From a virus (taxonomy: Duplodnaviria; Caudoviricetes), in IMG/VR virus record IMGVR_UViG_3300022407_001572, positions 1 to 33,753 of that record: 33,753 nt of DNA; one strand, 5' to 3'. Within the stretch, counting starts at the first letter, position 1, and each line of letters begins with the position of its first letter. The notes beneath the pieces were generated by a model that saw only the letters and a program-made list of their open reading frames with translations, was not told the origin of the DNA and did no database searches. Positions 1,412 to 24,204 of the stretch are shown here, one piece after another. Both the position numbers and the translations under genes were made by a program.

Positions 1412-1888
1412 CTATGCTTCAAATAAAATGTCGTAACTAAGTGTAACCGCTGTGGCTGGGGCCGCTAAGAATAAAGCGGATATGTTCTCGTTTGTTCCAA
1501 ACAAACTAATGTCTACATCAAAAGAAACGATATTGGGAATACCCGCTGCCGCTGCTGTTGTTGCTTGACCTAATACTCTAACTTCGCTAATCGCTCCAAG
1601 TAATGTGCCTGGCGTTGGTGCTACTGTGTATTGTGCTACCGTTGAACCTGGTAGTGTTGCGTCTGATGAACTTAAAGCTACCAAAGTCGGGGCCGTAGAA
1701 GTTCCACCGCTATGCGCAGTGCTATACTTTGCCAATCCTAAACGTAGGTAAGCTACCGCTGTCAGCGTAAGCCCTGAGATTATAATTTTCTTTACCTTGA
1801 CATTTCTGCCGGCTGCCCCGTTGATGGTAAGAAATGGAGCTGTGCCTGCCGCTGCCACTACGTTACCCGATGCTTTGAATACTGCCAT
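1412..1888 (-). CDS. Putative virion structural/decoration protein (158 aa, Ala/Thr/Gly-rich, beta-rich)
   Basis: ORF track; composition and position in the structural module; function not recognised. Confidence 0.55.
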   Translation of the reverse strand: MAVFKASGNVVAAAGTAPFLTINGAAGRNVKVKKIIISGLTLTAVAYLRLGLAKYSTAHSGGTSTAPTLVALSSSDATLPGSTVAQYTVAPTPGTLLGAISEVRVLGQATTAAAAGIPNIVSFDVDISLFGTNENISALFLAAPATAVTLSYDILFEA

Positions 1889-1902
1889 AATTTTTTACTT
1901 TT

Positions 1903-1936
1903 AAAAATAAAGGGCGTAACCTCCCAATCACGCCCT
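1903..1936 (-). terminator. Rho-independent terminator after the major tail protein gene
   Basis: Minus-strand hairpin AGGGCGTGA...TTACGCCCT followed by TTATTTTT. Confidence 0.7.
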
Positions 1937-1963
1937 CCCTTCCTACTTCACCAAAACCAAATA

Positions 1964-2827: not shown

Positions 2828-3027
2828 TATTTTCTAACTGTTATAATTGTTTTATCATCTAACGATGCTGAATGATTAACTGCCAGGTTCTCACCAAAAG
2901 CATTACCATAAAAAACAGCCCCGTCAGAGGTTACGAATACGTGATCGAAACCAAGACTAGGGAAGTCTACTAAAAATTGTAGACCCCTATCTTGTAGTAA
3001 GTTTGCGTTTGACTTATCCTTCGCCAT
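2827..3027 (-). CDS. Small hypothetical protein downstream of MCP (66 aa)
   Basis: ORF track 2827-3048; start moved to the ATG at 3027 just after the MCP stop; FVTSDGAVF motif. Confidence 0.7.
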   Translation of the reverse strand: MAKDKSNANLLQDRGLQFLVDFPSLGFDHVFVTSDGAVFYGNAFGENLAVNHSASLDDKTIITVRK

Positions 3028-3028
3028 A

Positions 3029-3937
3029 TTATGCGCGGTTAGAAACAAGTGCTAATTGCAAGAAGTTTGTGCTTCTTTGTGGAACGCCTTTAAATCTCAT
3101 TTGGAAACCAACCTCGTCAGCGCGCTGCTCAGGGTTGATGCCTTTCTCCTTGTAGAACATATCCATGCTACCCATAGCCTTCATTACTTCAGACTGGATG
3201 AACACAACAGATGAAATACAATCGTTAGTGTTATCAGCAGCAGCGCCATAAGCAGCCTTAGCCAATGTAGACTTAACGTAGATCGGAGTCTGTGAACTTA
3301 CATAGATTTTGAAACCGTAAAGATCAAGAGCCTGTCCAGTTTTCAAATCTGCAAACTGCTTCTGCAAAGAAACATCTTGAGCTAACAAGTCCTCTCTGTG
3401 GTAAGGAGAAAGAACAAGTATGCGACCATCTTCTGTGAAGTTACGTTGATCTAATTCCTGTTGAGCGCGAGCAATGTCCTTGATCTGCAAAGTAGCAGCT
3501 ACAGTAGTTTGCGCACCAATAACAGCGGCACGGTTAGCACCAGTTACAGCGAAAGCACCAGCCGCAGCAGTTGCAGGGGAATAGTTCCACAAGCACTCAG
3601 AAGAAATACGTGACATCAAAGCTTTCTTGTGCTGATCTGTTACGCTCTTTAGTTTGTCAATAGATGCTTCGATTTCTTCTACGTTGTAAATACGAGTAGT
3701 AGTTGAATCGTAAGTATCTAACACCACGGTAGCATTCGTGTCGGTACGTTGTGCCGCTACGATTGGCCATGATGCGTTATTCTTTAAAATGGTTGGATCA
3801 GAACCCGCTAATGTGAAATTGATTGTATTAGAATCAACCCACTGAGACCAATCGTCAACACCCTTAAGCCACTCATACTTCGCATAGAAGTTATCTTTTA
3901 GCTTATCAATCCAAATTTCTTTATTTACGCCTGCCAT
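3029..3937 (-). CDS. Major capsid protein (HK97 fold)
   Basis: 302 aa; MAGVNKEIW..., GRILVLSP, LYGFKIYVS motifs; directly downstream of the protease/scaffold gene. Confidence 0.85.
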   Translation of the reverse strand: MAGVNKEIWIDKLKDNFYAKYEWLKGVDDWSQWVDSNTINFTLAGSDPTILKNNASWPIVAAQRTDTNATVVLDTYDSTTTRIYNVEEIEASIDKLKSVTDQHKKALMSRISSECLWNYSPATAAAGAFAVTGANRAAVIGAQTTVAATLQIKDIARAQQELDQRNFTEDGRILVLSPYHREDLLAQDVSLQKQFADLKTGQALDLYGFKIYVSSQTPIYVKSTLAKAAYGAAADNTNDCISSVVFIQSEVMKAMGSMDMFYKEKGINPEQRADEVGFQMRFKGVPQRSTNFLQLALVSNRA

Positions 3938-3955
3938 TTTTTTAAAATTTAATTA

Positions 3956-5056
3956 TTACACATTTGCTTCTACACCGTACTTCGCTAGGTATAGGTTCTT
4001 AAAGTCCTCAATTCTTCCCTCAGCCCTTGCCTTTTGAATATCTTCTACTTTAATGTCTTTCTGGCCTACAAACTTTTCTACCTTCTTTAAAGTAGGTTTG
4101 TGGGTTCCAACGATTTGAGATTTCAACGCAGTGATTTCTGCCTGCATCTTCTCTTCATATTTCTTTTCTTGACCTCCCTGAGCTTCGATAAGCATTTGAA
4201 CAGCTTTCGCTAGGGTTGACAATTCACTCTTAATAGAGTCCATTTCAGAAGGTGTTTTATCTTCTTCAACTGGTGCAGCCTCTTTAACCTCTACCACTTT
4301 ACCAGCGGCAACGACTAAGATTTTACCACCTTCTAAAGCGTGTTCACCGTCCGGTGCTGGTTGACCTTCTACCGTTACGCTAGCACCTTCAACGGGTGCG
4401 CCTGGTTCGGCTTCGATCACAACGACCTTACCGTCTGCCAGCTTCATTTCTTGCATGGCCTTAACTCCTAATAGAGCCTTAGCACTTTTTAAAATATCGT
4501 TTACGTTCATTTTTACTTTAGCTAAAATTTGAAATTCTTCACTTACCGATGTGGCAAAACCTAACGAAACCGCTTGTTTTGCGCTCATGGAAGTCTCAAC
4601 ATCCATTAAAGGCTTCAATACGTCCTCCTCAGTGCCTGTTTTTTCTGAATAAAACTTTCTTAGATCGCTTTCAACTTCTGAAACACGTTGCGCGAATGAT
4701 GCCAGTTTGTTAGCATCGGATAGACCTGGATCGACTGCGGGGTTATGGATAAAGAACTCTGAGTAACTTCTCATTTCCCTTTCATCCCCAACTAAAAAAA
4801 TCTTGGTTGCGATTGACCCTACGAGCTTGTCGGCAACCGTTTTGATCTTGTACCCTTTGGCTTTTAAACCTTCGAGATAAGAATATATAGCGTTACCAAC
4901 CTCAACGAATCCGCCAGGACTGTTAATGATAACGCTAATGTCTTTGGAATCACCTGATTGGACCTGAGAGATAACGTCAATAAGCTCTACCCCACGGGTA
5001 TAGCCTCCGTTTTCGTCTACGCCTGAACCTATCTGTCCGGTGATGAAAATATCCAC
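3956..5056 (-). CDS. ClpP-like prohead protease fused to a scaffold domain
   Basis: INSPGG, GSIAT (catalytic Ser), FIHNP (His), ETSMSAKQAVSLGFAT; C-terminal PAPDGEH domain plus coiled coil; GTG start. Confidence 0.9.
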   Translation of the reverse strand: MDIFITGQIGSGVDENGGYTRGVELIDVISQVQSGDSKDISVIINSPGGFVEVGNAIYSYLEGLKAKGYKIKTVADKLVGSIATKIFLVGDEREMRSYSEFFIHNPAVDPGLSDANKLASFAQRVSEVESDLRKFYSEKTGTEEDVLKPLMDVETSMSAKQAVSLGFATSVSEEFQILAKVKMNVNDILKSAKALLGVKAMQEMKLADGKVVVIEAEPGAPVEGASVTVEGQPAPDGEHALEGGKILVVAAGKVVEVKEAAPVEEDKTPSEMDSIKSELSTLAKAVQMLIEAQGGQEKKYEEKMQAEITALKSQIVGTHKPTLKKVEKFVGQKDIKVEDIQKARAEGRIEDFKNLYLAKYGVEANV

Positions 5057-5060
5057 GGAA

Positions 5061-5084
5061 CAAAAGTACTTAGCTATAACTAAG
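5061..5084 (-). promoter_or_regulatory. Putative head-operon promoter (-7 box TACTTTTG) with adjacent palindrome CTTAG-N6-CTAAG
   Basis: Exact match to Bacteroidota TAnnTTTG 4 nt before the GTG start; inverted repeat at 5069-5084. Confidence 0.55.
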
Positions 5085-5097
5085 ACTTTAGGTCATA

Positions 5098-5310
5098 TTA
5101 TTTTATCCTAACCTTCGCCTGTCTTAGTGCAACCTTAACCTTACCCTCACTTGCGCACATCTTATCGGCTGTTAGATAAAGAGCCTCCTCATAACCGTAC
5201 TGCTTTCGGAGTTCCTGAAACGCTCCGTAAATATCGCAGTAGTAAAAAATAGCTTTTCTTGTAACGAATGGGTGAAGTTCACCCGCAATATAAGCTTCGT
5301 ATACCGTCAT
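5098..5310 (-). CDS. Small protein, possible HTH transcriptional regulator (70 aa)
   Basis: C-terminal YEEALYLTADKMCASEGKVKVAL has helix-turn-helix-like spacing; ATGA overlap with the TMP stop. Confidence 0.5.
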   Translation of the reverse strand: MTVYEAYIAGELHPFVTRKAIFYYCDIYGAFQELRKQYGYEEALYLTADKMCASEGKVKVALRQAKVRIK

Positions 5311-7079
5311 ATTACCTGAGCTGTGGTTTGGATTTGAACTTTAGTTTCTTGCTTAATTTCAAAGTCATCGAGAGGTAGAACGATCTTCATCTGTCCGAAC
5401 GCTTGGCGTATCTCCCCGAAAAGTCTATTTGTATTTACTTGTGATGCCGCTGCCTGAGTTTCAAAACCTCCTGTAACACCACCAACGGCAAAGCCTGGAA
5501 CGCCTATTCGGGCAAAGGTAGAAGCCCCGCCTAACCTAGCCTGCTGTGATTGGTTTAGGATTACTTCCCCTGTTTTAACCGTGGCTAACATATTATCACC
5601 GTTGGATCTGTTAATTGGTGAACCCATGCCAGGACCTATACGGGTTCCGGTTAATCCACCGCTGGCAAAGGCAGGTGTTGAATTGATTTTAGCAACGTTG
5701 GCAAGACCTGACGCAATAGCAAGTGCCGCGAAGATGGGGCCAAAGATAGGGCCAGCTCCAGTTGGAGGAGGAGCTAATGCTGCGGCAGCCGCTTGGTATG
5801 TGTTTATAACTGCCCCTGCCGAAGCTATCGCCTTTTGTTCCATCGATCCCCTTTTAAATAGGGCTGATGTTGCATTTATAGCTGCTCCAGTGTTTGCGAC
5901 ATCTTGGTTTAATTGTGCCTTATTAAACTTAGTTTTATCGGACATTCTTTGCGCGTCAAGTTTAGCAGCTTCATCTTTAGCGGCTTCTTCTTCCCCGATG
6001 TCTACTATTATTTCAGCGGTGTAATCTTCACTTGCTTTTTTCCTTTCTTCTAATCTTTTAAGGTCGTTGGCAAATTCCTGATCCGAAACCTGTTGTACTT
6101 TTTCGGCTACTAATTCAATCTGCTTTATCTTTTCCCCTGCCTCTTCTTTGGCAAGTAGAATGTTAATCCGTGTTTGTCTTTCAGCCGATGCCGTTTTTGC
6201 TTCTTCCTGTTCTACAAATACCCGCGTCTCTAATCGCTTTAATTGTGCTAATTCTTCCCCGCTTAAAGTCTTGCCCTTTAGCCTTAATTGTTCGTTGGCT
6301 AATTCCTGACTGGCTAACTCTTCCCTTTTTTTAGCGTTCTGAATTTCTAAGTCTGCAACTTGGTTAGCTATTTTAATACGCTCTTGTTCAGACTTGGTTT
6401 TATCCTTTAAAGACTTTTCTAAAGACTTAACCCTAACCTCGTTAATCTCTATTTGTTGACTGGCTATCGCTGTGGCTTCTGCGAACGCGTCAATACTTTC
6501 AGCAGCTTCATAGCCTGCCTTCGCTGCGTCCGTGGTTCCTTTGGTTAGGTCCGAAAAGAATTGAATAGGACTAAATATTGCCTCCTTTAATTTACTAAAG
6601 CTGGAAACAGTCTCTACAACCGTGTCAATAACAAATCCTAACCCCTTCGTGATACCTGAAAAGATAAAGGAAAGCTTATCAGCGACTACAGCGTTCTGTT
6701 CAAAGATACCTTTCAAAGCAAGAAAGGCCGTAATCGCTAGACCTATCGGGTTTGCTTTAAAAGCTGCACTTATTCCATTGATGCCTCCGGTAAAACCCTT
6801 TAACCCAGGGATCGCGTCAAGTATTCCACGGGTATAGTTACCTACGTTTTGACGCTGTTGTTCAAGCGCGGAGCTATTCTCCTTAATCTTTTTGTTGTTT
6901 ACATCGATCTGAGCGTTTAGTTCTACAGCCCTTTTTCTTCCCTCTTCCGTGGCAAGGTTTAAAGCGTTACGCTCTTGGGTTAATGCCCTCGTACTTTTAC
7001 GGATCGAATCTATTGATTCTACCGCTCCATCATCAACTACCTCTATCTCAAATATGATTTTTTCCTTATCCGTTGCCAT
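5307..7079 (-). CDS. Tail tape measure protein (590 aa)
   Basis: Long Ala/Glu/Lys-rich coiled coils, ANPIGLAI segment, hydrophobic Gly/Ala stretch, FASGG...GEVILNQSQQ C-terminal motif. Confidence 0.85.
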   Translation of the reverse strand: MATDKEKIIFEIEVVDDGAVESIDSIRKSTRALTQERNALNLATEEGRKRAVELNAQIDVNNKKIKENSSALEQQRQNVGNYTRGILDAIPGLKGFTGGINGISAAFKANPIGLAITAFLALKGIFEQNAVVADKLSFIFSGITKGLGFVIDTVVETVSSFSKLKEAIFSPIQFFSDLTKGTTDAAKAGYEAAESIDAFAEATAIASQQIEINEVRVKSLEKSLKDKTKSEQERIKIANQVADLEIQNAKKREELASQELANEQLRLKGKTLSGEELAQLKRLETRVFVEQEEAKTASAERQTRINILLAKEEAGEKIKQIELVAEKVQQVSDQEFANDLKRLEERKKASEDYTAEIIVDIGEEEAAKDEAAKLDAQRMSDKTKFNKAQLNQDVANTGAAINATSALFKRGSMEQKAIASAGAVINTYQAAAAALAPPPTGAGPIFGPIFAALAIASGLANVAKINSTPAFASGGLTGTRIGPGMGSPINRSNGDNMLATVKTGEVILNQSQQARLGGASTFARIGVPGFAVGGVTGGFETQAAASQVNTNRLFGEIRQAFGQMKIVLPLDDFEIKQETKVQIQTTAQVI

Positions 7080-7081
7080 AC

Positions 7082-8953
7082 CTACACTCTAAAAAGTTCC
7101 ACCCTCGTTAATTGACCTGGTACAAAGTTTTCTATCTTGTTAACTAAGTAATATTCACCGTTATCGTAAATCATTTTAAACGGATCGTACTCAAAAATAT
7201 CCTTTTCGGTTAAGTTGTAAAACCGCTTTACTATCTTGTTGTTTTGGAGGGAGTTTTCTAGGATTGAATAGTAGTTATCTATAAAGTATTGAAAGCTGGT
7301 TGACCTTGTAATGGTGCTATCCTCAAAGTATGCCACCTTGTAAGATGTTACTACGCCTGAATAGGTTACTGATGGTTCTTCTGCTAACTTATCGCGTACC
7401 GTTAAAAGTGTAAACGGTACGGCATTTCTAATGTCATAGAAGTCAGCAGAATCGCTTTCATAAAGATTTAACTTTGCACAATTAACCCCAAAGTCATTAA
7501 GTGTGTCGGCTGTTTTAAACACGCTTGTAAACTTTACTAACTCATCCTTTGGAGATTCAGCTAATTGCAAACTACCCCTGCCTCTATTTGTTGTTTCGGT
7601 ATTGTCAGAGTATTGATAGTAATTATTTAACGCGAAACCGTTTGTAAAGTCAGTTGATACATCCGATGAACGTTTAGTGGTCCAATCAATAGAAGTACCG
7701 GTATCTGCGAGAATATCATTTAGTTTCTTAATCCTTAGATACCCAGTTTCGTCTACCTTAAAAATAACCCCAAACCTTACCAACCAATCCTTCATAAAAT
7801 CTAATGGGGATATTGTGTTGGTAATAAGATAATCAAAAAACAATCTTTCTTTGTAAACTCTTGTAGTCGTTTTGGCGTACATAGTTGCCGAGCTTAAAAA
7901 TAAACTCATTGGTGCAAATCCCTGATCGTCAAACGTTAAATAAATCAAATCTCCATCTATTACCTCTATGGTTGCAGATAGTGTCTTGCCTATTATTGTA
8001 TCTGTGGTAAGTGGAGCCACTGAATAGTTAACCGTGAAAGGATAGGTAAAAACCCCGCCTCTATTTCTTGTTAGTCTTACTCTTGATTGTAAAACTAATA
8101 CTGCATCTGTGTTGGTGATCGATCCATTAATAGTGTAGCTGACATTTAATTCAATCGCTGTATTCGATGGGCAAGCTATTCTACCGTTTGCCTGATCGTA
8201 AATGTCTACTGATCCCTCGCTTGTTACGCTTGTGATAAAAGTAATATCCCCGCTTGCCGCTAGACTTTGAGTTCCAGATGATACGGCTGTCATGTCAAAT
8301 ACTTCTGAAATCTCAGACGTGTATTCTAGCTTATCCGAAACGTTGGCGAGTGCTAATTGAGCCACATCACTATTTAATGCGTTACTCCCTGAAATGTCAG
8401 TAGGGGAAACACCTATTGCGGTGCATATTGATTTAATGTAATTGGAGTAATAAAACAAAGGCCAATAAAACAACGTATCAAAACCATTGCCCCAATTTAG
8501 ATAAGGAGCAACTATGCCCGTAGTGTTATTCCTTACACTCTCTATTGTAACCGAGTTCCAAACAGAATCACCAAAGCTATAACCGTTATTGTTTACTATG
8601 TAATTAAGCGTTTGGGTTTTTAATAATGAAAACGAATCTACATCTGAATCGTAAATCTGAATCCTTAAACCTTTTTCTACTCTTGTACAAAACAGTTTAC
8701 CGTAGCTTATAACCTCGTACCCGTTCTGTACTACCCTACATTCCAAAGTTGAATAAACCTTTGTGCTTAATGATTTGTCAGATTGAAGTTCAAAGATAGA
8801 TAGATTGTTTGCCGTTGGTGGTGCAACTATTTCGTTAGTGCTTGACACATACCGACTGGACGGATTGAACACATCGAACCGCTGAACGGTGATGGCCACA
8901 ATCGTTCCAGGCGACAAATCTAAAATACTATCTCCAACGTAGATTAATGTCAT
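7082..8953 (-). CDS. Tail tip/hub-like protein (623 aa)
   Basis: Size, beta-rich composition, N-term LDL...and C-term YYLVNKIENF...TRVEL pattern of siphovirus tail proteins; adjacent to TMP. Confidence 0.65.
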   Translation of the reverse strand: MTLIYVGDSILDLSPGTIVAITVQRFDVFNPSSRYVSSTNEIVAPPTANNLSIFELQSDKSLSTKVYSTLECRVVQNGYEVISYGKLFCTRVEKGLRIQIYDSDVDSFSLLKTQTLNYIVNNNGYSFGDSVWNSVTIESVRNNTTGIVAPYLNWGNGFDTLFYWPLFYYSNYIKSICTAIGVSPTDISGSNALNSDVAQLALANVSDKLEYTSEISEVFDMTAVSSGTQSLAASGDITFITSVTSEGSVDIYDQANGRIACPSNTAIELNVSYTINGSITNTDAVLVLQSRVRLTRNRGGVFTYPFTVNYSVAPLTTDTIIGKTLSATIEVIDGDLIYLTFDDQGFAPMSLFLSSATMYAKTTTRVYKERLFFDYLITNTISPLDFMKDWLVRFGVIFKVDETGYLRIKKLNDILADTGTSIDWTTKRSSDVSTDFTNGFALNNYYQYSDNTETTNRGRGSLQLAESPKDELVKFTSVFKTADTLNDFGVNCAKLNLYESDSADFYDIRNAVPFTLLTVRDKLAEEPSVTYSGVVTSYKVAYFEDSTITRSTSFQYFIDNYYSILENSLQNNKIVKRFYNLTEKDIFEYDPFKMIYDNGEYYLVNKIENFVPGQLTRVELFRV

Positions 8954-10620
8954 GTTGTAAATGTGTCAGGGTATTCAATATCAATAGTAAAGATGTGCCT
9001 TTCTTGTCGCGTATTGGTTGTGTTGGCGTTTGGAATAACTATAACACCAGTCTTATTACCTTCGGAGTCTATTACATAAGCTTGTGATCCAATCCGAGAT
9101 TGTGTTTTGATTACTGAACTTGAAAACTCTACTATTGAATTGTTATAAACTTCTCCAAGTGTTACAAAGTCCTCCAAAGATTCCCACTGATTTATAGTTA
9201 GGTTCTCAGAAAATAATCTCAATCGCTTTCTCTTTACACCGTTGTCATAGGTAAATGTATACTCCTGATTGTAGAAAAAAGGCCAGCTTAATCCACCGCC
9301 TAATGTATTCCTGGCAACTAAAAGAACACTATTATCACAAGGTTCTAAAACAGTTGTTTTGATTGGGACCATACCGGTAGCAAATGAAACATCGTACTCA
9401 TCTAAAACCTGACTAGGCATCTGATACTTTAAATCAACCAAAAGAACTGATGATGTATCTAAATAAGATACAAGAAACGGCCATCCTCTAAAAATTCTAA
9501 ACTCTTCAAATTTAGTAAGTGTTTTTAAAGTTGATTCAATCATCAACATTGTATCAAAATTGTAACTCGATCCTGGTACTGTCTCGTTTAAAATAGACAT
9601 ATCAAAATAAGTACAATCAGCATTCGGTATTATCGTACCAACAATGTAGGTTTCTGTCATTAGGCTTATATTTCCGAAAAATTCTTGCCCTGTTGAAAGA
9701 GTTACCTTTAATTGACCGGTTCCAAATCCAGCGGTGTTAACGTTACCGCTTAAGGTGTATTCAACATATGCTAGCAGCGTAGTTGGCCTTCTAACCCTGT
9801 TTGAGCTTTGCCCAGCGCCTAGTGCCACTTCAATATAGGAAGCGTTAATTGTCCATGCTATGCCGCCTCCGCCTTGATCTACCCATCCAGCGGCTATCCA
9901 GTTTGGCGCTACTGTTGTGAAAGTTGTGCCTGTTTCCTTTCTATATTCCAACATATTACCACCGTATAGTGATGGTATTTGTAAAGCTCCATAAACCGCG
10001 TTAAAGGTATTAGCCGAGTCGTTTGTTTCAACGTTTGCACTACCTATCCACTGTTCGGTATACTTTATGTAAAAGTTTTTGTAAACGTTACTGTCAGTGT
10101 AAGAAGGTATCCCAGTTGTTAAGTCAGCACTAATATCAGGAGACATCGCAGACCAAAGTACCTTACTAATGTCTATCGTTACTAATCCTGTTTTGTCTGG
10201 GCTAACCCTTATCGTTCCAATCAAAGAAGATGTATAAACGCCAACCGATACTTTATAATTTAACCGTTGACTTAAGTTTATATACCCAGTAGTGGCCGGT
10301 GATATGTAAGTACCTGCACTAAACACTACCACACTATTCGCTGCGTTCGTTACTGAAACAACCGTATAAAGTGCATTGTAAATACCGTTATCAGTTGCCA
10401 CCCACATAGTAGCACCGACCAACACCGGACCACCTAAAGCCGTTGATAGTGTTACGAGGTTGGTGTTAACCGTTATCTGTAACGCTCCAGCACTGTTCGC
10501 CACGGCCGTTATATTGTAGTCCTTCCTTACCATCTTGTACAGGATAGGATTACCTACCGCGTTCCATGTACTTGTGAATGGGCTTGTAATTGATGGGCGT
10601 TGTGTTACTGTTAATGCCAT
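8950..10620 (-). CDS. Tail structural protein, distal-tail-like with inserted domains (556 aa)
   Basis: ORF track; RNTLGG-W motif near the C-terminus; located in the tail module. Confidence 0.55.
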   Translation of the reverse strand: MALTVTQRPSITSPFTSTWNAVGNPILYKMVRKDYNITAVANSAGALQITVNTNLVTLSTALGGPVLVGATMWVATDNGIYNALYTVVSVTNAANSVVVFSAGTYISPATTGYINLSQRLNYKVSVGVYTSSLIGTIRVSPDKTGLVTIDISKVLWSAMSPDISADLTTGIPSYTDSNVYKNFYIKYTEQWIGSANVETNDSANTFNAVYGALQIPSLYGGNMLEYRKETGTTFTTVAPNWIAAGWVDQGGGGIAWTINASYIEVALGAGQSSNRVRRPTTLLAYVEYTLSGNVNTAGFGTGQLKVTLSTGQEFFGNISLMTETYIVGTIIPNADCTYFDMSILNETVPGSSYNFDTMLMIESTLKTLTKFEEFRIFRGWPFLVSYLDTSSVLLVDLKYQMPSQVLDEYDVSFATGMVPIKTTVLEPCDNSVLLVARNTLGGGLSWPFFYNQEYTFTYDNGVKRKRLRLFSENLTINQWESLEDFVTLGEVYNNSIVEFSSSVIKTQSRIGSQAYVIDSEGNKTGVIVIPNANTTNTRQERHIFTIDIEYPDTFTT

Positions 10621-11093
10621 TATTCAAATGATGTTTTTAAAATCTTAGTAGTGTTGGTCTTGAACTGATCGAACATAGCTTTGCGTATCTCGTCACGGCT
10701 TGCTTCCATTTCGGCCTCGATTATATCAAGGACTGCTAATCTTGGGGATTCGTTACGCTTTGCCTTGGTTCCTGACTTCTTAATCTTCATGGCAATCGCC
10801 CAAGCTAATGAATCTACTTTGCCGTCCTTTGGTTGGATGCCTTTAGCCTTGATCCATTTCTTTATTGCGTCAACCGGTGGCAAGGTTCCAGGACTTCGCC
10901 CGTACTCCTGCCAGTAGAAATAACCAGCACCAGTTAAGGCCCCAGTTATGTTACCGCTTACTTCTTTGGTTTTGGATTTTAAACTCTTAGCCGACTCACC
11001 GGACGCGCGTATCTTCTTATCCTCTTGGTCCTGAATTATTCCAAGTCGGATGTTATCTAAAAGCTTCTGTATCGCCTCGCGTGTGGTTAGCAT
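10620..11093 (-). CDS. Neck/tail-completion protein (157 aa)
   Basis: ASGESAKSL, EYGRSPG.PP...I..WIK.KGI, LAWAIA.KI...GT motifs typical of phage neck proteins. Confidence 0.7.
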   Translation of the reverse strand: MLTTREAIQKLLDNIRLGIIQDQEDKKIRASGESAKSLKSKTKEVSGNITGALTGAGYFYWQEYGRSPGTLPPVDAIKKWIKAKGIQPKDGKVDSLAWAIAMKIKKSGTKAKRNESPRLAVLDIIEAEMEASRDEIRKAMFDQFKTNTTKILKTSFE

Positions 11094-11551
11094 CCTGTTT
11101 TACCTTCGTAGATTGGAACGGTAGCCTGTAATGAAATGCCGAATAGGTGAATATCTTGCCACGCGTATTCTGCCGTGTATCTCACTTCTTTAATGCCGTC
11201 CGCGTAGTCAGGGTTATAATCGATCACCGATTCGTACCCCAGCTTGTGGATGAAGTTACGCCCTATCTCGCGCGCTTGGTCTACAATCGGCTGCACTTCC
11301 TCAGATCGGTAGTCAGTCGTTGGAGCGTCTACCTTTCTTACAATAAAAGCCTGTAGGGTGAATGATGTGTGGTATTCTCGCTGGGTTCCGATTGTATCGG
11401 TATTCTCAAAAGGAGGGATGTAAACAAAGTACCATCCTGTTTCGCTCGCCAAGTGATCGAGGTCAAAGTTTGATTCGTAAAGGTTAGCGTAAACGAATTG
11501 CACGTTCTGATCTAAATTAGATACTACGCTCTTGATTGTGTCTACTATCAT
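11087..11551 (-). CDS. Putative tail terminator protein (154 aa)
   Basis: Size, acidic composition, position next to the neck gene. Confidence 0.5.
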   Translation of the reverse strand: MIVDTIKSVVSNLDQNVQFVYANLYESNFDLDHLASETGWYFVYIPPFENTDTIGTQREYHTSFTLQAFIVRKVDAPTTDYRSEEVQPIVDQAREIGRNFIHKLGYESVIDYNPDYADGIKEVRYTAEYAWQDIHLFGISLQATVPIYEGKTGC

Positions 11552-11847
11552 TTCGGCCTCATTGCTTTTTCAACTTCAATATACCTTTCTTGGTATTCGT
11601 TCTGCTGGTTCCATAACGCCAAAAACGGCATCACATCACCCATCTTTTCACTTAACACAAGCCTTGGCAATATACCGTAGGCTTTGGCGTACTTATCAAT
11701 CCAACTAAGATTCGTCCAAGGTTCAAGCTTATCAACCCCAGCCTCTTTGGCGTAGAGTTGACGTTCAGCATTAGCGGGCGAATCACTTGCCGCCATGAAA
11801 GAAAGCCACTTCGACCACGCCTTTTCAGCCGATTTAACAAAAAAAAA
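11548..11847 (-). CDS. Tail assembly chaperone, -1 frame extension (gpT-like part of a ~266-aa fusion)
   Basis: -1 frame is open from the T9 run: FFVKSAEKAWSKWLSF-MAASDSP...EKAMRPK; ends with an ATGA overlap on the next gene. Confidence 0.65.
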   Translation of the reverse strand, partial: FFFVKSAEKAWSKWLSFMAASDSPANAERQLYAKEAGVDKLEPWTNLSWIDKYAKAYGILPRLVLSEKMGDVMPFLALWNQQNEYQERYIEVEKAMRPK

Positions 11848-12347
11848 CCAACCGGATAAACGTCTAATATGCTCATCTCCTTAACCATACCCTCCAACAC
11901 TTTCGCGCTGTTAAGACTAAAAGGAGCATCATCATATAGGGGTTGAATATACACAGAAAAGGCGAAACTTAAAAGCTCCCTTAAATCTACGCATCCCTTC
12001 AACGCGTCCTTGATTACTAAGTTCTGTTCGATGGTTAGTTCTTCAATGTCTTTTGGAATTAAGATAGTCCGGTTTCCAACTATCACAACTTTGGGCATCG
12101 GGAGCTTTTCGAAGTCCATAGGATTGTACCAAACATAATCCGTGCAATCGTCAATGATCTGGTCAAGCTTCTCGCTTACCGCTGATCTTACCAAGGCTTC
12201 ATCGTACCCCGTCTGAATGCAGAATAGCTTTATCCGATCCACCTTATCCCATTCCTTTACATAGCGTTGGTATAGGCCAGTAGTGGTTTCTGCCCAGCTT
12301 TGGGGAACCTTGATGATATTGTCGTTAGCGTCCTTTAGCTTAATCAA
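11652..12347 (-). CDS. Tail assembly chaperone (gpG-like), probable TTG start at 12347
   Basis: P.SW.E.T..Y and I.ELT..Q motifs; ...DVYPVGFF slippery run GGT TTT TTT TTG. Confidence 0.65.
   Translation of the reverse strand: MIKLKDANDNIIKVPQSWAETTTGLYQRYVKEWDKVDRIKLFCIQTGYDEALVRSAVSEKLDQIIDDCTDYVWYNPMDFEKLPMPKVVIVGNRTILIPKDIEELTIEQNLVIKDALKGCVDLRELLSFAFSVYIQPLYDDAPFSLNSAKVLEGMVKEMSILDVYPVGFFLLNRLKRRGRSGFLSWRQVIRPLMLNVNSTPKRLGLISLNLGRILVGLISTPKPTVYCQGLC
11839..11847 (-). other. Putative -1 ribosomal frameshift slippery site (T TTT TTT)
   Basis: Nine-T run on the coding strand that joins the two overlapping ORFs by a -1 shift. Confidence 0.65.
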
Positions 12348-12465
12348 TCGCTTTCCAGGTTTCCCGTGAAACAATAAACGCAACCTTAACCAATGAGGTA
12401 ACCAAAGAAACGGGTAGCCAAATAGGGAAGGTTAGAACAAGTGCAATGATTTGTCGTTTGGTCAT
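12340..12465 (-). CDS. Small membrane peptide (41 aa)
   Basis: MTKRQIIALVLTFPIWLPVSLVTSLVKVAFIVSRETWKAID; fills the gap between TerL and the chaperone. Confidence 0.55.
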   Translation of the reverse strand: MTKRQIIALVLTFPIWLPVSLVTSLVKVAFIVSRETWKAID

Positions 12466-12466
12466 A

Positions 12467-13657
12467 TTAAACTGCTTTAGCTGAGAATGCTCTTTTACCT
12501 TTCCGGTGGTTAGCTAGTGCCAACGCGCAAACTATATCATCGTGCATACCATCGGGAGCTGAATACTTTACACCTGACTTTGAATAGATAAACTCGAAAG
12601 ATTCCAATTCATCAACCATATCAGCAAGGATGTAAATTTCACCTTTTTGAATTGAATTTGCAAGACCTTCCATTATTTGTTGTTTGGAATTGGATGTGAA
12701 AACAAACCCCTCCGCCCGTGGACATGATCGGGTTATTTCCTCAACTATCGGATTACCTACCCCAGTGCTATCAATGTAGGCCGGCTTTTGCTTAATCAAA
12801 TCTATTATCCGTTTGGTCGTTTGTCCCCAATCGGACTGCCAGCGGTGAAACTCTGTAACCTGACCGTTAATGTCTAAACCTATAACTACCGTCCAATCGT
12901 GTGACTTCGCCAAGTCTACCCCGTATGATGCTGTAGGGTTTTTAGATAGTGGTCTGATCGCGCTCTTGATAAACTCATGCCCGAACGGGTTGGCATCCTC
13001 GTCTAAGGCATCACCTAAATATAGCTGTCTGAATGCCTTGTCGGGTAAGTCTCGCCTTGCCTGTTCTACTTCGTCAAGTGATAGGATGCCAGCGTCAACC
13101 GCATCGTAGGCCGTTAGCTTGAAGTGCTTATACCCTGGTTCGCCTGATCTTGCCTTTACCCCTAAACGATAACCCCAATTATTCTTCCCCCGAACGTTTC
13201 CGATAAACTTACACTTTCCTTTGGTTGCTGTTAAGGTAGACCGCAAAGCAATCCAAGCCTCCTCCCGCGCCCGTGTGAACTCGTCAAAGACCACCGCGTG
13301 AACATCCTCCCCGTAAAGGTTATCAGGTTTTTCCGCTGATTTGAACCATATTGTCGCTTTCTTGGGTGTTACGATAAACAGATCCGATTCGTTGATTCTA
13401 TACCCAGGCTTGCCGGCTATGGTTCTACGCATCCGAGTGAATGCTATTTTGGCCTGTGAGTAAACAGGAGCAACCCACCAATAGTTAGCCCCTTCTTTTG
13501 GGGGTTTGTGGGCTTCTTCAAATATCCACCAAAGATGTGAATAGGTTTTGCCTACCTTAGTTGATGCCTCGCATACCGTGAAGCGTTCGGGGCAGTAGAG
13601 TATATCCTTTTGGTAACTCGTTAGGTTTGGCCTTATAAGCTTGTAATCACTCTGCAT
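12467..13657 (-). CDS. terL: Terminase large subunit
   Basis: Walker A-like ASTKVGKT, WWVAP, Walker B VVFDE, nuclease GVDLAKSHDWT, IDSTGVG, HDDIVCALALA. Confidence 0.95.
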   Translation of the reverse strand: MQSDYKLIRPNLTSYQKDILYCPERFTVCEASTKVGKTYSHLWWIFEEAHKPPKEGANYWWVAPVYSQAKIAFTRMRRTIAGKPGYRINESDLFIVTPKKATIWFKSAEKPDNLYGEDVHAVVFDEFTRAREEAWIALRSTLTATKGKCKFIGNVRGKNNWGYRLGVKARSGEPGYKHFKLTAYDAVDAGILSLDEVEQARRDLPDKAFRQLYLGDALDEDANPFGHEFIKSAIRPLSKNPTASYGVDLAKSHDWTVVIGLDINGQVTEFHRWQSDWGQTTKRIIDLIKQKPAYIDSTGVGNPIVEEITRSCPRAEGFVFTSNSKQQIMEGLANSIQKGEIYILADMVDELESFEFIYSKSGVKYSAPDGMHDDIVCALALANHRKGKRAFSAKAV

Positions 13658-14217: not shown

Positions 14218-14310
14218 TCATAATCCGAGTAACTTCAAAATAAATATTGTAATAACCAGCACCAAAGCGGCAAGGAAAGTAGATAGCCGGTCTTTGTCTC
14301 GCTGGGTCAT
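14218..14310 (-). CDS. Small membrane peptide (30 aa)
   Basis: MTQRDKDRLSTFLAALVLVITIFILKLLGL; ATGA overlap with the MTase stop. Confidence 0.5.
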   Translation of the reverse strand: MTQRDKDRLSTFLAALVLVITIFILKLLGL

Positions 14311-15182
14311 ATTATTGCTATCGCCTTAAATATCTCATAAGCTACTTGTGGAACTATGGCGTTTCCTCCGGCTTTGATTGATTCGCTTCGCCACTTAGGA
14401 AAGGTAATAGAGTCCAGTTTTCCGGAAAGTCCATCATCTCCATTACAAATCGTGGATTGAGTTGGGAACTTTTCCCAGGTTGATGGAAGGCATCCGGCAA
14501 TGAGTTCGTTTCTGTTCTTCCTGATTGTTTCAGTGCTTCCGTTGATCTCGCACCCTTGTAATCTCGTGTCGCTGGTGTTGGTAAAAACATTTTCCAAATT
14601 TCCGGATTGTAAACTACTTGATGTAGACTTAGTCCGTGATTTATTCCTTCCTTGTAAGATGTTCTTAATGACCCTTTCCTGTCTTGTAAATCTGGTGTTG
14701 GCAGCAATAAACCAAATTCTATCCCTTCTGTGTGGAGCGTTGACGGCACAAGCTGGAAGTAAAAACGGTGTGACTTCGTAGCCTTGAGCTTCCAGGTCAG
14801 CCTGCACTTCATCGAAAACCATTCCCCCGTTCCAATTAGTGAGGCCGCGAACGTTCTCGCCCACAACGTAGGTCGGTTGAATTTCTCGAACTGCTCTAAG
14901 CATCTCCGGCCAGAGGTGGCGGTCATCTTCCTTTCCAAGTCGCTTCCCCGCTGCGCTGTATGGTTGGCATGGAAATCCACCTGTAAGGATGTCGATGGTT
15001 CCTCTGTGAATAGTGAAGTCTGTCTTTGTGATGTCATGGTATGATGTGGCTTTAGGCCAGTAATGTTTTAGTACTCTTTGTCCAAAAGGATTCCACTCGC
15101 AATGAAATACGTTATCCCAACCCATCCACTCGGCAGCTAGATCGAATCCACCTATTCCGGAAAAAAGGCTACCGTGCCTCAT
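14307..15182 (-). CDS. dcm: DNA (cytosine-5) methyltransferase, alpha polypeptide (motifs I-VIII and X, lacks IX)
   Basis: SLFSGIGG (I), GGFPCQ (IV), ENV (VI), PHRRDRIWFIA (VIII), GNAIVPQVA (X). Confidence 0.93.
   Translation of the reverse strand: MRHGSLFSGIGGFDLAAEWMGWDNVFHCEWNPFGQRVLKHYWPKATSYHDITKTDFTIHRGTIDILTGGFPCQPYSAAGKRLGKEDDRHLWPEMLRAVREIQPTYVVGENVRGLTNWNGGMVFDEVQADLEAQGYEVTPFLLPACAVNAPHRRDRIWFIAANTRFTRQERVIKNILQGRNKSRTKSTSSSLQSGNLENVFTNTSDTRLQGCEINGSTETIRKNRNELIAGCLPSTWEKFPTQSTICNGDDGLSGKLDSITFPKWRSESIKAGGNAIVPQVAYEIFKAIAII
14354..15037 (-). CDS. C5-MTase beta polypeptide overprinted in the +1 frame (TRD-like repeats plus motif IX)
   Basis: Nested 227-aa ORF with LLPTP..D.KG twice and LNPRFVMEMMDFPENWT (motif IX) at 14411-14461; true start uncertain. 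Confidence 0.75.
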   Translation of the reverse strand: MTSQRQTSLFTEEPSTSLQVDFHANHTAQRGSDLERKMTATSGRRCLEQFEKFNRPTLWARTFAASLIGTGEWFSMKCRLTWKLKATKSHRFYFQLVPSTLHTEGIEFGLLLPTPDLQDRKGSLRTSYKEGINHGLSLHQVVYNPEIWKMFLPTPATRDYKGARSTEALKQSGRTETNSLPDAFHQPGKSSQLNPRFVMEMMDFPENWTLLPFLSGEANQSKPEETP

Positions 15183-15328
15183 CTTACCTTAAATCCTTTT
15201 AGTTCCATCATCGCCATCCATTCGTTAGGCTTTGCTTTACATGGGTGTTGGTTTCTCGGGAAGTGATAGTCCTCTGCATCCGTGTTGGGCATATTGTTTT
15301 TAATCGGTTTGAGTCTCCTTCTCCCCAT
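15179..15328 (-). CDS. Small hypothetical protein (49 aa; alternative start 15292)
   Basis: MGRRRLKPIKNNMPNTDAEDYHFPRNQHPCKAKPNEWMAMMELKGFKVR; ATGA overlap with dcm. Confidence 0.45.
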   Translation of the reverse strand: MGRRRLKPIKNNMPNTDAEDYHFPRNQHPCKAKPNEWMAMMELKGFKVR

Positions 15329-17937: not shown

Positions 17938-20103
17938 TTAAATCAAAACAAGCTGCTTTTTTTGCTCAATAGCTGCTTTTAAATTTGCCTTGGCCAGGTC
18001 AAAGTAAGATTCTTTTAATTCAAATCCTATCCCTTTCCTTTCCATTTTTACGGCCTGGTAAACTTCACTACCTATTCCCATGAACGGAGTGAAAACTGTA
18101 TCGCCTTTGTTGCTGTATAGGTGTATCAATCGCTCAATGGTGTCAAGTTGTAAAGGGCAAATATGCTTCTCGTCATTATCTTCTCGACCATTGCGGAAGC
18201 CCTGCAAAGTGTTACCGTAGTCTATGTCCATCCAAACAGGTGATGCGTATTTCTGCCAAAGGTCAACAGGGATATGAGTGTTGGTTACTGGGTTAGTCCT
18301 TTCGCCATCCTTTCTAAATATCATCACGTAGTCAGGAATACCAACACGTGACATAGTGCTATCCTTTTTTACTTGCTTATGTAGCAACCCTAATGCTTTG
18401 GTCCTTTGCATTTCAACAACCGGATCTTTCCATATTGTAACACGTGAAGCATAAACAAATCCGGCATCCTCAAATACTTTTAAAAGCAATCCTGAAAAGT
18501 CACGCAGTCCGATAAATCCATGCTTACCTTTTTGAATAGGTAAGTCCATACAATGAACACACACATTACGTCCTGACATCATTACGCGATACAATTCTTT
18601 TACAAGGAATGAGAACTGGGTTAAAAACTCTTGATAGTCTTTTGAATTACCCATATCCTCAACGTGACTTGAATACGTGTAAAGTTCTGCGAATGGTGGA
18701 CTGAATACAGATAAACCAATTGATTCACTTTCTATCTCAGGAATAAGCTGAACACAATCCCCTCGCTTTATTTGGTACCAGTCGTTTCTTTCTTCGGTAA
18801 TGTCAAATTCGGATGTAGTCATAAGTTGGTTATTTAAGTTTGCGTTTATTGCTTTGGCCATTTCATCCTGCATGATCTTAAATTGATCTTGTTTTCTTTG
18901 GATGGATGCTAGTACGTTTTTCATTGTGTCGGTAGTGATAAGGTAAATAAATACCTCATGCTCTTGTCCGAACCTGTATGATCTACGGATAGCCTGGTAC
19001 AATCCCTCAAAGGAGAAATCTAAAGAGGGGAATATTTGATTGTAACAGTTCTGAAAGTTCATACCGAATGAAGCGATCTTTTGTTTTGTTATAAGAATAC
19101 GGAACTCATTATTTGCAAATCCTAAAAGCTTTTCTTTCTTCCATTGATCCGAATCAGATCCTTTTACTTCGATGGCATCCGGTAATAGTTTTCTAAGATA
19201 CTCCCCTTCTTCATTCTGCTTTATCCATATAATAAAGTTCTCGTTTGGTTTAGAATTAAGTACATCTATAACAGCATCAAGGCGTTCTTTTTTGCTTGCC
19301 CGTAATGCGCTGTTAAAGTTTGTAGCCGAAATGATCGCATCATTAAACAGTTGACCGTTATCCATTTTAGGTGTATTGATTTGTCTCTCAATAAGATTGA
19401 GGTTTGGCAAGGCATAGCCATCCATTTCAAATCCTATATCCTGGGGCTTGTTTAGCATGATTGACCAGGTGCCAACAAACTGATAGAACAATTTAACAGC
19501 ATGGCCTTTCAATCTCCATTTAGCCGTATCTCCTCCATCATGTACAAAGTACATTGCAAGCATTTCATTACGGCTCATTACGTCTAAGAACTCGGAATGA
19601 TTACCTAACTCCATAGGATCGTTGGGGCTTGGTGTAGCCGTACAAGCTAGCTTATACGGTGTCTTTGCAAAACGTTCTAGTATTAACTTCTTAGTTTCGC
19701 CTTCAAAGTTTTTTAGGATTGAGCTTTCATCCAAACAAATACCACCGTATAAACTTGTATCGATGTTATTTAACTGCTCATAGTTATCCTCATCAATAAG
19801 GTCTGCATGAACGTTAAACTTGATAGCCTCGCGCTTGGTTTGTTCAACCACAACCAAAGGAGCAAGTATTAAAACGCGCTTATCGGTTACCTTACTAACT
19901 TGATATGACCATTCAAGCTGCATCAATGTTTTACCAAGTCCACAATCCGCAAAGATGGCATACTTTCCAGCCTTCAATGCTCGCTTAACTATGAACTTTT
20001 GAAACGGAAACATATGCTTGTTTAGCTCCGATTCTTCAATATCAAATCCGCTTAATACATGGCTTTTGTGTTTTTGTTTTAAGAAGTCTTTGTAATCATC
20101 CAT
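17938..20103 (-). CDS. SNF2-like helicase fused to an amino (N4C/N6A, beta-class) DNA methyltransferase (721 aa)
   Basis: DCGLGKT, LDESS, TATPSPND, QAIRRSYRFGQ; then FSPPF (motif IV), HICPLQ, TPFMGIGS (motif I). Confidence 0.9.
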   Translation of the reverse strand: MDDYKDFLKQKHKSHVLSGFDIEESELNKHMFPFQKFIVKRALKAGKYAIFADCGLGKTLMQLEWSYQVSKVTDKRVLILAPLVVVEQTKREAIKFNVHADLIDEDNYEQLNNIDTSLYGGICLDESSILKNFEGETKKLILERFAKTPYKLACTATPSPNDPMELGNHSEFLDVMSRNEMLAMYFVHDGGDTAKWRLKGHAVKLFYQFVGTWSIMLNKPQDIGFEMDGYALPNLNLIERQINTPKMDNGQLFNDAIISATNFNSALRASKKERLDAVIDVLNSKPNENFIIWIKQNEEGEYLRKLLPDAIEVKGSDSDQWKKEKLLGFANNEFRILITKQKIASFGMNFQNCYNQIFPSLDFSFEGLYQAIRRSYRFGQEHEVFIYLITTDTMKNVLASIQRKQDQFKIMQDEMAKAINANLNNQLMTTSEFDITEERNDWYQIKRGDCVQLIPEIESESIGLSVFSPPFAELYTYSSHVEDMGNSKDYQEFLTQFSFLVKELYRVMMSGRNVCVHCMDLPIQKGKHGFIGLRDFSGLLLKVFEDAGFVYASRVTIWKDPVVEMQRTKALGLLHKQVKKDSTMSRVGIPDYVMIFRKDGERTNPVTNTHIPVDLWQKYASPVWMDIDYGNTLQGFRNGREDNDEKHICPLQLDTIERLIHLYSNKGDTVFTPFMGIGSEVYQAVKMERKGIGFELKESYFDLAKANLKAAIEQKKQLVLI

Positions 20104-22996: not shown

Positions 22997-23158
22997 ATGA
23001 GCAAAAACATAGCAAAAACGTCCAAAAGAGGCCGGAAACCTATCAAAGATAAGGTAGTGCCACTGACGATATTTGTCAAAGAATCTGTAATAATGAAGTT
23101 CGGGAAGGCCGAATTTGCCCGAGCTTACGCTAAACAATGCCTGGAAGAATGGACTTAA
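22997..23158 (+). CDS. Small DNA-binding protein, RGRKP arm plus ribbon-helix-helix-like (53 aa), leaderless; candidate repressor
   Basis: MSKNIAKTSKRGRKPIKDKVVPLTIFVKESVIMKFGKAEFARAYAKQCLEEWT; ATG 3 nt after the -7 box; divergent from the early operon. Confidence 0.6.
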   Translation: MSKNIAKTSKRGRKPIKDKVVPLTIFVKESVIMKFGKAEFARAYAKQCLEEWT

Positions 23159-23225
23159 CCACCCCTAACCGGCATGATAAAGTACACGTTACCGGACAAA
23201 ACAGCATTTAATGTGTGGTATATTG

Positions 23226-23358
23226 GACATAATGGACATTGGTTTATGAGGGTTGTGATTAGATAAAACTAAACTGTCAAACAAGATGAATAAATTAGAA
23301 GAACTGTTTAATAAGATGTACGATGAACAGAACAACTCGCATAAACCTGTTGTTAGCG
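23226..23358 (+). repeat. attC-like imperfect inverted repeat
   Basis: Arms GGTTTATG-A-GGGTTGT (23241-23256) and ACAACTC-G-CATAAACC (23332-23347), followed by GTTAGCG (23352-23358); degenerate left core ACATAAT. Confidence 0.45.
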
Positions 23359-23597
23359 GTAAAGCGATGGACATAACTAAAGAACAATACCTAAATGCAA
23401 AAAAAATTGTTGATGAATACGAAAGGGATGAGTATGAAACCAACATGAGAATAGCAGAACATGAATTAGATGAAGATGATCCAATCTTTGGAGATGCAGA
23501 TCAGCCATGCTCAGTATGTGGAGAAATTGATGGAATGGTAAACCCATGCTGCCCAGATTATGACCCACTTCATAGAGATAACTGCGGGTATGGCTAA
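23286..23597 (+). CDS. Acidic protein with C-terminal Cys cluster (103 aa; alternative start 23367)
   Basis: ORF track; ITKEQYLNAKKIVDEYE motif; CSVC...CC...H...C. Confidence 0.6.
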   Translation: MNKLEELFNKMYDEQNNSHKPVVSGKAMDITKEQYLNAKKIVDEYERDEYETNMRIAEHELDEDDPIFGDADQPCSVCGEIDGMVNPCCPDYDPLHRDNCGYG

Positions 23598-23661
23598 AAA
23601 AGTTTAAAGTTTGCAATCACAAGTTATGAATAGAAGAACACACGTGACAAGCCAATTCGTT

Positions 23662-23795
23662 TTAGCCGAATATTAGCTGCATGTGTTTTGTTGGGCTTGG
23701 AGTGTGGCGTGAGAATGGGGTTTGAGCAGCGTGAGTTCTGCGGATTAAGGAAGCCACACCTTAGGCCAAAACATTGCCAGCTAATATATCGCTAA
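23662..23795. repeat. Long imperfect inverted repeat (~134-nt hairpin) at the convergence point of transcription
   Basis: TTAGC-cga-ATATTAGCTG...TGTTTTG...GTGTGGC versus GCCACAC...CAAAACA...CAGCTAATAT-atc-GCTAA. Confidence 0.7.
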
Positions 23796-23820
23796 CCGCA
23801 ACGTAACCGTTTGTAAACTT

Positions 23821-24204
23821 TTAGCGCCTTAGCAACCCCATAACGATAAGCCCAGTAACTATACCTATTAGTAGGTACTGCCAAAAGTGGCGTTTAGGCG
23901 GTGCTGTTATTTTTTGAGTAACCAAAACGGGAACTTTTACGGTATCGGGTTTGCAATCTACCTCTTGCCAGATAGTGTCATTCTTTATGTAAATTTTACT
24001 AAGCCATCTCGTAGTATTTACGATTATGGTATCGTTTTTTGTCACCTCACTAAGCAAGGCAACCGTATCGGTAACCGTTCGCTCTGTTATAACATCGACA
24101 TAAGTAGTGTCGGTCTTAACCTTTCCGCCTTTCTTAATCGCTTGCTTTAAGTGGAAAGAAGCGCTGCACGAAGAAAGTAAAATAAGTATTGCTAGGTATT
24201 TCAT
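23821..24204 (-). CDS. Unimolecular spanin (u-spanin)-like lipoprotein
   Basis: Lipobox LSSC at residue 13, beta-rich DT-repeat periplasmic part, C-terminal TM helix ending RR; last gene of the lysis block. Confidence 0.7.
   Translation of the reverse strand: MKYLAILILLSSCSASFHLKQAIKKGGKVKTDTTYVDVITERTVTDTVALLSEVTKNDTIIVNTTRWLSKIYIKNDTIWQEVDCKPDTVKVPVLVTQKITAPPKRHFWQYLLIGIVTGLIVMGLLRR

Follow-up and report, generated by a model that had tools for sequence, protein, structure and literature searches.

A phage C5-methyltransferase split across two overprinted reading frames, with probable recognition modules and a predicted clamp-binding motif in the nested chain

A cytosine C5-methyltransferase gene carried by a phage is split across two overprinted reading frames, and we consider it probable, from comparison with its relatives, that the product is a two-chain enzyme whose hidden chain bears recognition modules and a hook for the sliding clamp. 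The window analysed here is the whole of a linear viral record of 33,753 bases, estimated to be 85% complete. Its methyltransferase gene encodes a long chain, alpha, and, beginning 145 nt downstream of the alpha start and hence in the +1 frame, a second chain, beta (Table 1). This split had been proposed in an initial annotation made from the letters of the window; conservation of the open frame, selection and a start in the beta frame all uphold it, and the coordinates given for the two ORFs were correct, although the minus strand had been left out.

Table 1. Features of the methyltransferase gene, in coordinates of the window
Feature	Position	Strand	Basis or remark
Alpha chain, 291 aa, C5-methyltransferase	14307-15182	-	PF00145 and motifs; no motif IX
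Alpha motif I	15147-15170	-	
Alpha motif IV	14964-14981	-	
Alpha motif VI	14850-14858	-	
Alpha motif VIII	14712-14735	-	
Alpha motif X	14349-14366	-	
Alpha segment W..FPTQS, residues 236-244	14451-14477	-	Alpha-frame selection; overlaps start of beta motif IX
Beta chain, 227 aa, +1 frame, wholly nested in alpha	14354-15037	-	phrog_1008
QTSLF, beta residues 6-10, predicted sliding-clamp (DnaN) binding motif	15008-15022	-	Published consensus
Beta core, about residues 33-100, overprinting alpha motifs IV-VIII	14738-14941	-	Invariant W, L, W, S, C, W
Beta module 1, LPTP head, 40 aa; likely target-recognition unit	14585-14704	-	
Beta module 2, LPTP head, 41 aa; likely target-recognition unit	14462-14584	-	
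Motif-IX-like segment of beta	14411-14461	-	Pattern and position

The record encodes terminase, portal, capsid, Clp-type protease, replication initiator, DnaB-like helicase and NinG, almost all of its genes being read from the minus strand. The methyltransferase gene lies on that strand between the NinG and terminase genes, and the alpha ATG overlaps the stop of an upstream 49-aa ORF (ATGA). Bacteroidota are the likely host group of the phage, since most of the nearest genomic relatives of beta come from Bacteroidota records. The gene is a dispensable accessory unit, because a related contig from run X2 has identical flanks joined without it, 147 other letters replacing the whole gene (window 14310-15185). 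Among the runs listed as containing the sequence none is of RNA; in run X9, which is probably DNA, only relatives are present. No restriction endonuclease was found nearby among the window proteins scanned (34 Pfam, 25 PHROGs, 30 PADLOC) in this 85% complete record. A second methyltransferase is encoded in the replication region (17938-20103, minus strand), in a 721-aa protein that joins an SNF2/ResIII-like helicase to an N6/N4 DNA methyltransferase. Over the whole window and both strands, several words are strongly avoided (CGCCG/CGGCG 0 versus 29 expected, GAATTC 0 versus 18, AGGCCT 0 versus 15, CTAG 78 versus 220), which suggests restriction pressure; k-mer avoidance does not identify the target of the methyltransferase. 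The portal gene (32744-33637) and the terminase-to-capsid genes (1412-13657) occupy opposite ends of the record, which suggests that the assembly is circularly permuted and has a gap. A reversal of both GC and AT skew falls at 23000-24000, and the same kilobase holds a plus-strand 103-aa ORF (23286-23597) in a genome otherwise read from the minus strand.

Alpha residues 1-217 match PF00145 (E 2e-45), and the chain resembles M.HhaI and M.HaeIII across about 160 residues in both sequence and fold. AlphaFold models motifs I-VIII and the helix of motif X with confidence, and most of residues 182-274 fall below a pLDDT of 50. The family match, the motif patterns and the model confirm the earlier description of a 291-aa frame with motifs I, IV, VI, VIII and X and without motif IX.

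Beta matches the PHROGs family phrog_1008, 'DNA methyltransferase' (E 3.9e-21), and no Pfam or NCBIfam family; PF00145 matched none of 67 members of the beta family. Searches of the PDB by sequence and by fold gave no match, the latter with a weak model (pLDDT 58.6 and pTM 0.28 for beta alone) in which the core forms two helices and a beta-hairpin. The fold search returned nothing at E <=0.001 in PDB or BFVD, and the best viral row obtained from BFVD with this poor model was a putative cytosine methyltransferase (E 0.018). The open frame itself is far from random expectation. When alpha was recoded synonymously with the codon usage of the phage, the longest +1 run had a median of 54 and a maximum of 160 codons, none of 20,000 trials reached 227, and 11.2 stops were expected in the beta span; in 14 other long genes of the window, +1 runs span 21-73. 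The initial annotation had named retention of the +1 ORF in homologues as a check, and the frame is open for 193-315 codons in all 80 viral loci fetched with alpha. Over alpha codons 60-259 of 68 non-redundant genes (13 of 81 rows dropped; less than 90% identical; 14,169 codons) we counted no +1 stops versus 1,066 in the +2 frame, +1 stops being frequent on either side of this interval. A beta-frame ATG is found upstream of motif IV in 109 of 110 pairs. Neither alpha nor beta is preceded by a Shine-Dalgarno signal, an absence that is uninformative in Bacteroidota.

A genome search starting from beta yielded 84 loci, in 80 of which motif IX was recognised by pattern. Each of those 80 has motif X in the alpha frame and 64 have all five alpha motifs, the remaining 16 having at least one alpha motif missed by the pattern, a contig end or, at L089, an interrupted alpha. 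A search aimed at long fusions gave only one 440-aa beta, which is weak evidence. Together with the selection described below, open-frame conservation indicates that beta is a real gene under selection. That the +1 ORF is a chance shadow of an alpha that works alone, as beta's want of a Pfam or PDB match might suggest, is next to impossible given the recoding trials, the stop-free homologous codons, alpha silent sites fixed where beta needs them, and a stretch of alpha (182-274) that is mostly unstructured in the model.

Selection is visible in both frames. Mean entropy at alpha four-fold sites is 1.60 bits before and 1.51 bits after the overlap, and falls inside it to 1.01 bits (alpha 76-163) and to 0.40 bits at motif IX (Mann-Whitney P = 0.001, 12 versus 31 sites). 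In 97-100% of genes the codons of alpha V107, V111, V126 and L130 end in the only base that yields W, F, C and W in beta. Because alpha silent sites in motifs IV-VIII are fixed for beta residues, about 100 codons of the catalytic core are doubly coded. In the reciprocal test, from which 25 of 110 rows were dropped, beta wobble positions vary freely both at the LPTP heads (148 heads, 1.64-1.85 bits) and in MMGFP (1.69 and 1.83 bits), so alpha is passive at these places. Selection on alpha returns around residues 236-244, immediately ahead of beta motif IX and extending into it. The picture drawn at first, in which alpha holds only low-information sequence after motif VIII and conserved information switches from frame 0 to +1 and back to 0, was thus too simple: it missed the dual selection over the catalytic motifs, where beta is selected across alpha IV-VIII, as well as the return of alpha selection before motif IX.

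Separate translation of the two chains, followed by their pairing, is very probable by analogy with M.EcoHK31I, a precedent of two chains. A single polypeptide could in principle arise through two programmed frameshifts, from 0 to +1 after motif VIII and back to 0 before motif X; single-frame relatives with the same order exist, and, with slippery-type patterns pooled, 79 of 103 genes have one around alpha codons 93-97. We regard this as very unlikely, since the slippery spot precedes motifs VI-VIII, where a shift could not yield the whole enzyme, and coincides with conserved beta residues, while no slippery pattern is conserved near VIII. Furthermore, alpha is open from end to end, beta is selected over some 100 codons (~100) before VIII, and it keeps its own ATG in all but one of the 110 pairs.

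Under the two-chain reading, beta would supply the motif that alpha lacks. The earlier claim that the +1 ORF supplies motif IX stands in so far as a conserved IX-like peptide is present at the expected place; its identification rests on pattern and position, plus one weak Pfam match in a single-frame relative (PF00145 profile positions 277-315, E 0.29), and PF00145 gave no match to five other distinct pieces tested; a seventh piece lay in the alpha frame and is uninformative. The pattern is strongly conserved and lies directly before motif X in single-frame relatives. As had been noticed, the usual G of MMGFP is D in the window (MMDFP, codon at 14429-14431; silent in alpha), and this proves to be a private change, D occurring in 1 and G in 141 of 142 betas. 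The codon is real in the assembly, a contig from run X1, from which the window may derive, showing 0 differences over 14250-14776 at a depth of 139. The near-invariance of the glycine, and the dispensability of the gene in the X2 contig, would suit a functional family of which the window copy is weakened or dead; we think this improbable, because N is found at the site in 2 of 120 database proteins and because both frames and all catalytic motifs are intact.

Ahead of the motif-IX-like segment, beta carries the two LPTP-headed modules. They had been described as LPTP..D.KG units; there are indeed two, although the pattern reads LPTP-xxx-D-x-KG, with three spacer residues. The accompanying nucleotide repeat CTGGTGTTGG is present at 14572 and 14692 as reported, but it encodes P-T-P twice and stands in a kilobase that holds 12 families of short direct repeats, its own among them; this 10-nt repeat was rejected as independent evidence. 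Among relatives we counted 240 modules in 98 betas, 12 of 110 betas having been dropped for want of a pattern match; median module length is 40 residues, with 1-5 modules per protein and about 35 aa per added unit, and database betas reach about 10 modules (P0163). The 98 betas display 75 arrangements, the same types recurring at different positions. Module 2 of the window is of a recurrent type, close copies being unit 1 of 1, 2 of 2, 3 of 3 and 4 of 4 elsewhere; module 1 has no close counterpart among the 240 (best score 46 versus 195 for self). Some long betas (P0149, P0206) have between their modules a further conserved stretch of ~100 residues, which may be a helical DNA-binding domain.

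The position of the modules points to a role in DNA reading. The region between motifs VIII and X forms the DNA-reading small domain in solved C5-methyltransferases, according to the accessible text of PMC3404938, and here alpha 164-235 is variable, passive at the module heads and largely unstructured in the model. The last module head lies 10-50 residues ahead of motif IX in 93 of 98 betas, and the TL motif, with the consensus P(STCA)PT(ILV)(TASV), likewise stands 10-50 residues before motif IX (PMC2413257). Because they fall in the DNA-reading region, with the last head placed as the TL motif is, the modules are likely recognition units, and we lean towards their acting as target-recognition domains (TRDs). 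The strict TL consensus PT[ILV][TASV] occurs in 5 of 240 modules, heads reading PTP in 191 of 240. A module-head profile finds the TL site of M.SPbeta and of M.H2 marginally (P about 0.02), as one of several TRDs in each; the beta profile does not match M.SPbeta (E 0.45), and a search of the ESM Atlas with the module region gave no usable match. The modular target-recognition units of the initial annotation therefore draw support from position and shuffling, but not from the TL consensus or from profile similarity to multispecific enzymes.

A narrower version of the two-chain enzyme, in which contact with the target is left to the last LPTP module alone, the one next to motif IX, and the rest are duplicates without a function or grip DNA non-specifically, seems to us rather unlikely. 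It would accommodate the scarcity of the strict TL consensus, the preference of some module types for the last position and of others for the first, the sufficiency of a single module in 5 of 98 betas, and the uniqueness of many module bodies (114 clusters among 240). Against it, the commonest type (cluster 0) is found first, in the middle and last, non-terminal modules keep their heads and recur across unrelated alphas, and tandem TRDs are a known design of multispecific phage C5-methyltransferases (PMC2413257).

The beta N-terminus, MTSQRQTSLF, ends in a clamp-type motif that the initial annotation had missed. Beta residues 1-30, the tail in which QTSLF sits, are of low confidence in the model. 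The published clamp consensus is Q-phi-x-L-F or Q-phi-x-L-x-L (accessible parts of PMC3716654 and bioRxiv 10.64898/2026.05.27.728225); the window has T at position 2, which is not the preferred aliphatic residue, and many relatives have I or L. The motif is QLTLF in Bacillota phages and QLDLF in Omega, and it also occurs in +1 frames of Paenibacillus, Lacticaseibacillus and mycobacteriophages. In a set of 110 pairs (37 of 147 dropped as redundant, the window itself among them) a loose form of the motif, chosen post hoc after sight of this first set, was present within the first 32 beta codons of 93, versus 5.2 expected from synonymous recoding; it was found 0 times in the other two frames and 0-3 times in later beta windows. 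Once the pattern had been fixed, 108 of 112 and 89 of 108 database proteins showed it, versus 0-1 in control windows (0 in all three for the set of 108), these sets having been ranked with a profile that includes the motif, and 9 of 121 and 28 of 136 proteins, respectively, having been dropped for short or unplaced N-termini. Among all proteins of the window the motif has 2 matches in 10,402 residues, one of them that of beta. Motif classes are inherited along the tree (19 changes versus 44 when shuffled), so the counts are not independent.

At least four registers are used, the hexamer being found at several separate places on the tree, and a motif in another register is present in 25 of 44 betas where the pentamer is absent, versus 3 of 63. 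In phage BKO1-TP3, QTSLF lies inside an alpha insertion and beta has no motif; such an insertion, of ~25 residues after motif VI, is seen at L082:1341-2510 and L148, and bears QTSLF in BKO1-TP3. A complex prediction for beta 1-34 with a Bacteroidota DnaN, a stand-in for the host clamp taken from the genome of a prophage-bearing relative, scored 0.51 versus 0.39 for the control, a difference that we enlist on neither side of the binding question. No DnaN was found in the record, which does have an initiator and a helicase.

From these distributions, docking on the clamp through the beta N-terminal motif appears somewhat more plausible than its absence. QxSLF might instead be a by-product of the conserved alpha sequence D-I-T-K-T-D-F or of the beta translation start, with no clamp hook; it does overlap a conserved alpha stretch, and it is missing from 17 of 110 betas, 7 of which form a clade. 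In M.EcoHK31I, moreover, the beta N-terminus can be trimmed by ~35-41 residues with activity falling only gradually (PMC2836561), so that the tail would not be needed for catalysis. This explanation is nevertheless doubtful, because the codons required by the motif far exceed background even in 53 genes with the same alpha residues (ACA in 50, background 0.32; TTC in 46, background 0.36; ATT or GTT in all 53), because the motif turns up in other registers where this one is absent, and because in one phage it sits in alpha.

The family is large and its frame boundaries move. At E <=0.001 the beta profile finds 16,340 protein clusters (50% identity), 1,415 of them at 1e-30, and the nested layout occurs in phages or plasmids of Bacteroidota, Bacillota, Actinomycetota and Pseudomonadota and of one archaeon, Methanomethylovorans hollandica, on a plasmid (L214:1498-2289). 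The mycobacteriophages WillSterrel and OldBen encode a single chain in the alpha frame, with modules, IX and X after VIII, and retain a shorter core ORF in +1; the beta profile aligns to the region of WillSterrel between VIII and X (E 1.2e-8). Peaches and phiBT1 have modules, IX and X on the +1 chain, and P0163 likewise has them on a second chain; in Rabbitrun, IX is in frame 0 and a module in +1. Gene 9.1 of phiBT1 (L213:1486-2533) is annotated 'may be inactive'; an unannotated +1 ORF of 310 codons supplies its modules, motif IX and motif X.

Nested ORFs in these methyltransferase genes are of more than one type. In Streptococcus phage P0093 and mycobacteriophage Omega, a canonical motif IX stands in frame 0 or in a downstream gene and the +1 ORF is a different one. 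A canonical motif IX together with a different nested +1 ORF is seen in the methyltransferases at L206:1186-2049 and L210:1495-2799. The beta profile does not significantly match the Omega +1 protein (E 0.49), which we treat as a different or remote type of beta; 524 plasmid records contain relatives of the Omega ORF, in many cases beneath a gene annotated as a Dam-family methyltransferase. The expectation that standard annotation would miss beta is mostly right, but the GenBank record of phage Tadhana already lists both nested CDSs and PHROGs has a beta family; other records list only alpha. The accessible text of PMC6070908, on methyltransferases and overlaps, does not discuss nesting, and in the open-access literature we found no survey of the nested family, no LPTP modules and no methyltransferase of a phage as a clamp client.

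The layout itself has the precedent that had been cited for it. M.EcoHK31I, from E. coli HK31 (YGGCCR), has an alpha chain with motifs I-VIII, X and a predicted TRD and a beta chain nested in another frame with motif IX, both being required (PMC2836561, PMC3404938, in their accessible text); activity drops gradually as the beta N-terminus is trimmed (PMC2836561). By these published descriptions, rather than by sequence, the two enzymes share an alpha with I-VIII and X and without IX, and a wholly nested beta. They differ in that the predicted TRD of M.EcoHK31I lies in alpha, whereas the corresponding region of the window alpha is passive and the candidate modules are in beta; the window enzyme would thus be a variant of M.EcoHK31I and not a plain member of its kind. 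Betas of the window family carry 1-10 shuffled candidate modules, the window gene is an orphan phage gene, and its beta has a clamp motif, of which the accessible descriptions of M.EcoHK31I make no mention. With the multispecific phage C5-methyltransferases (SPbeta MtbP, phage H2) the family shares tandem exchangeable units of ~40 residues between VIII and IX, each with a P-T-containing core; those enzymes, however, are single chains with PT-L/V cores after a conserved aromatic-x-R segment, while the present units have a PT-P core, sit on a second chain and show no detectable profile similarity to them. M.AquI consists of two polypeptides, I-VIII and IX-X (PMC3404938), a split that resembles Peaches, phiBT1 and P0163, whereas in the window motif X remains on alpha and beta is fully nested. 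Sliding-clamp clients likewise carry Q-x-x-L-F or Q-x-x-L-x-F/L near a flexible terminus, but those listed in the accessible parts of PMC3716654 and bioRxiv 10.64898/2026.05.27.728225 are polymerases, repair and initiation factors, and the motif of the window is a predicted one. As far as our searches of the open-access literature show, the size of the family, the module array on a hidden chain, the moving frame boundaries and the clamp-type motif go beyond what is in print.

In the mechanism that we consider most likely, one message would give two chains, of which alpha would bind SAM and attack the flipped cytosine, while beta would dock through its core and motif IX and show one module at a time to the major groove. 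The host clamp would hold beta close to the fork, and new phage DNA would be marked at one or more sites before host restriction enzymes cut; reliance on the host replisome would follow from the finding of an initiator and a helicase, and of no clamp, in the phage. Alpha between VIII and residue 236 would be a passive spacer that need only stay free of stops, so that modules could be gained, lost and exchanged in three-base steps without harm to either chain. Two methylase genes, which may or may not be of the nested type, are reported to be transcribed early and strongly in mycobacteriophage Kampy (PMC4626039, accessible text). More tentatively, and as a possibility that we hold less likely than not, the overprinted frame may be a combinatorial specificity cassette in a very large phage family, with the catalytic body constant in one frame and, in the other, a clamp-tethered chain of 1-10 shuffled PT-P modules of a new kind, through which several restriction sites would be methylated together as DNA emerges from the host replisome; the boundaries of modules, IX, X and clamp hook would move freely to give monomeric, nested and AquI-like forms.

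The two-frame layout has been treated in the literature as an oddity of one enzyme (PMC2836561, PMC3404938, in their accessible text), yet the beta family comprises the 16,340 clusters reported above. Annotation of alpha alone discards the part that likely sets specificity, and can call an enzyme dead, as with phiBT1. Should the clamp hook prove genuine, phage methylation would be tied to the replication fork, with DNMT1 and PCNA as the functional analogy. The family also allows the tolerance of double coding to be studied in about 100 codons of a catalytic core. If the modules are recognition units, they would constitute a natural library of hundreds of short DNA-reading elements and would offer a direct test of how phages track host restriction.
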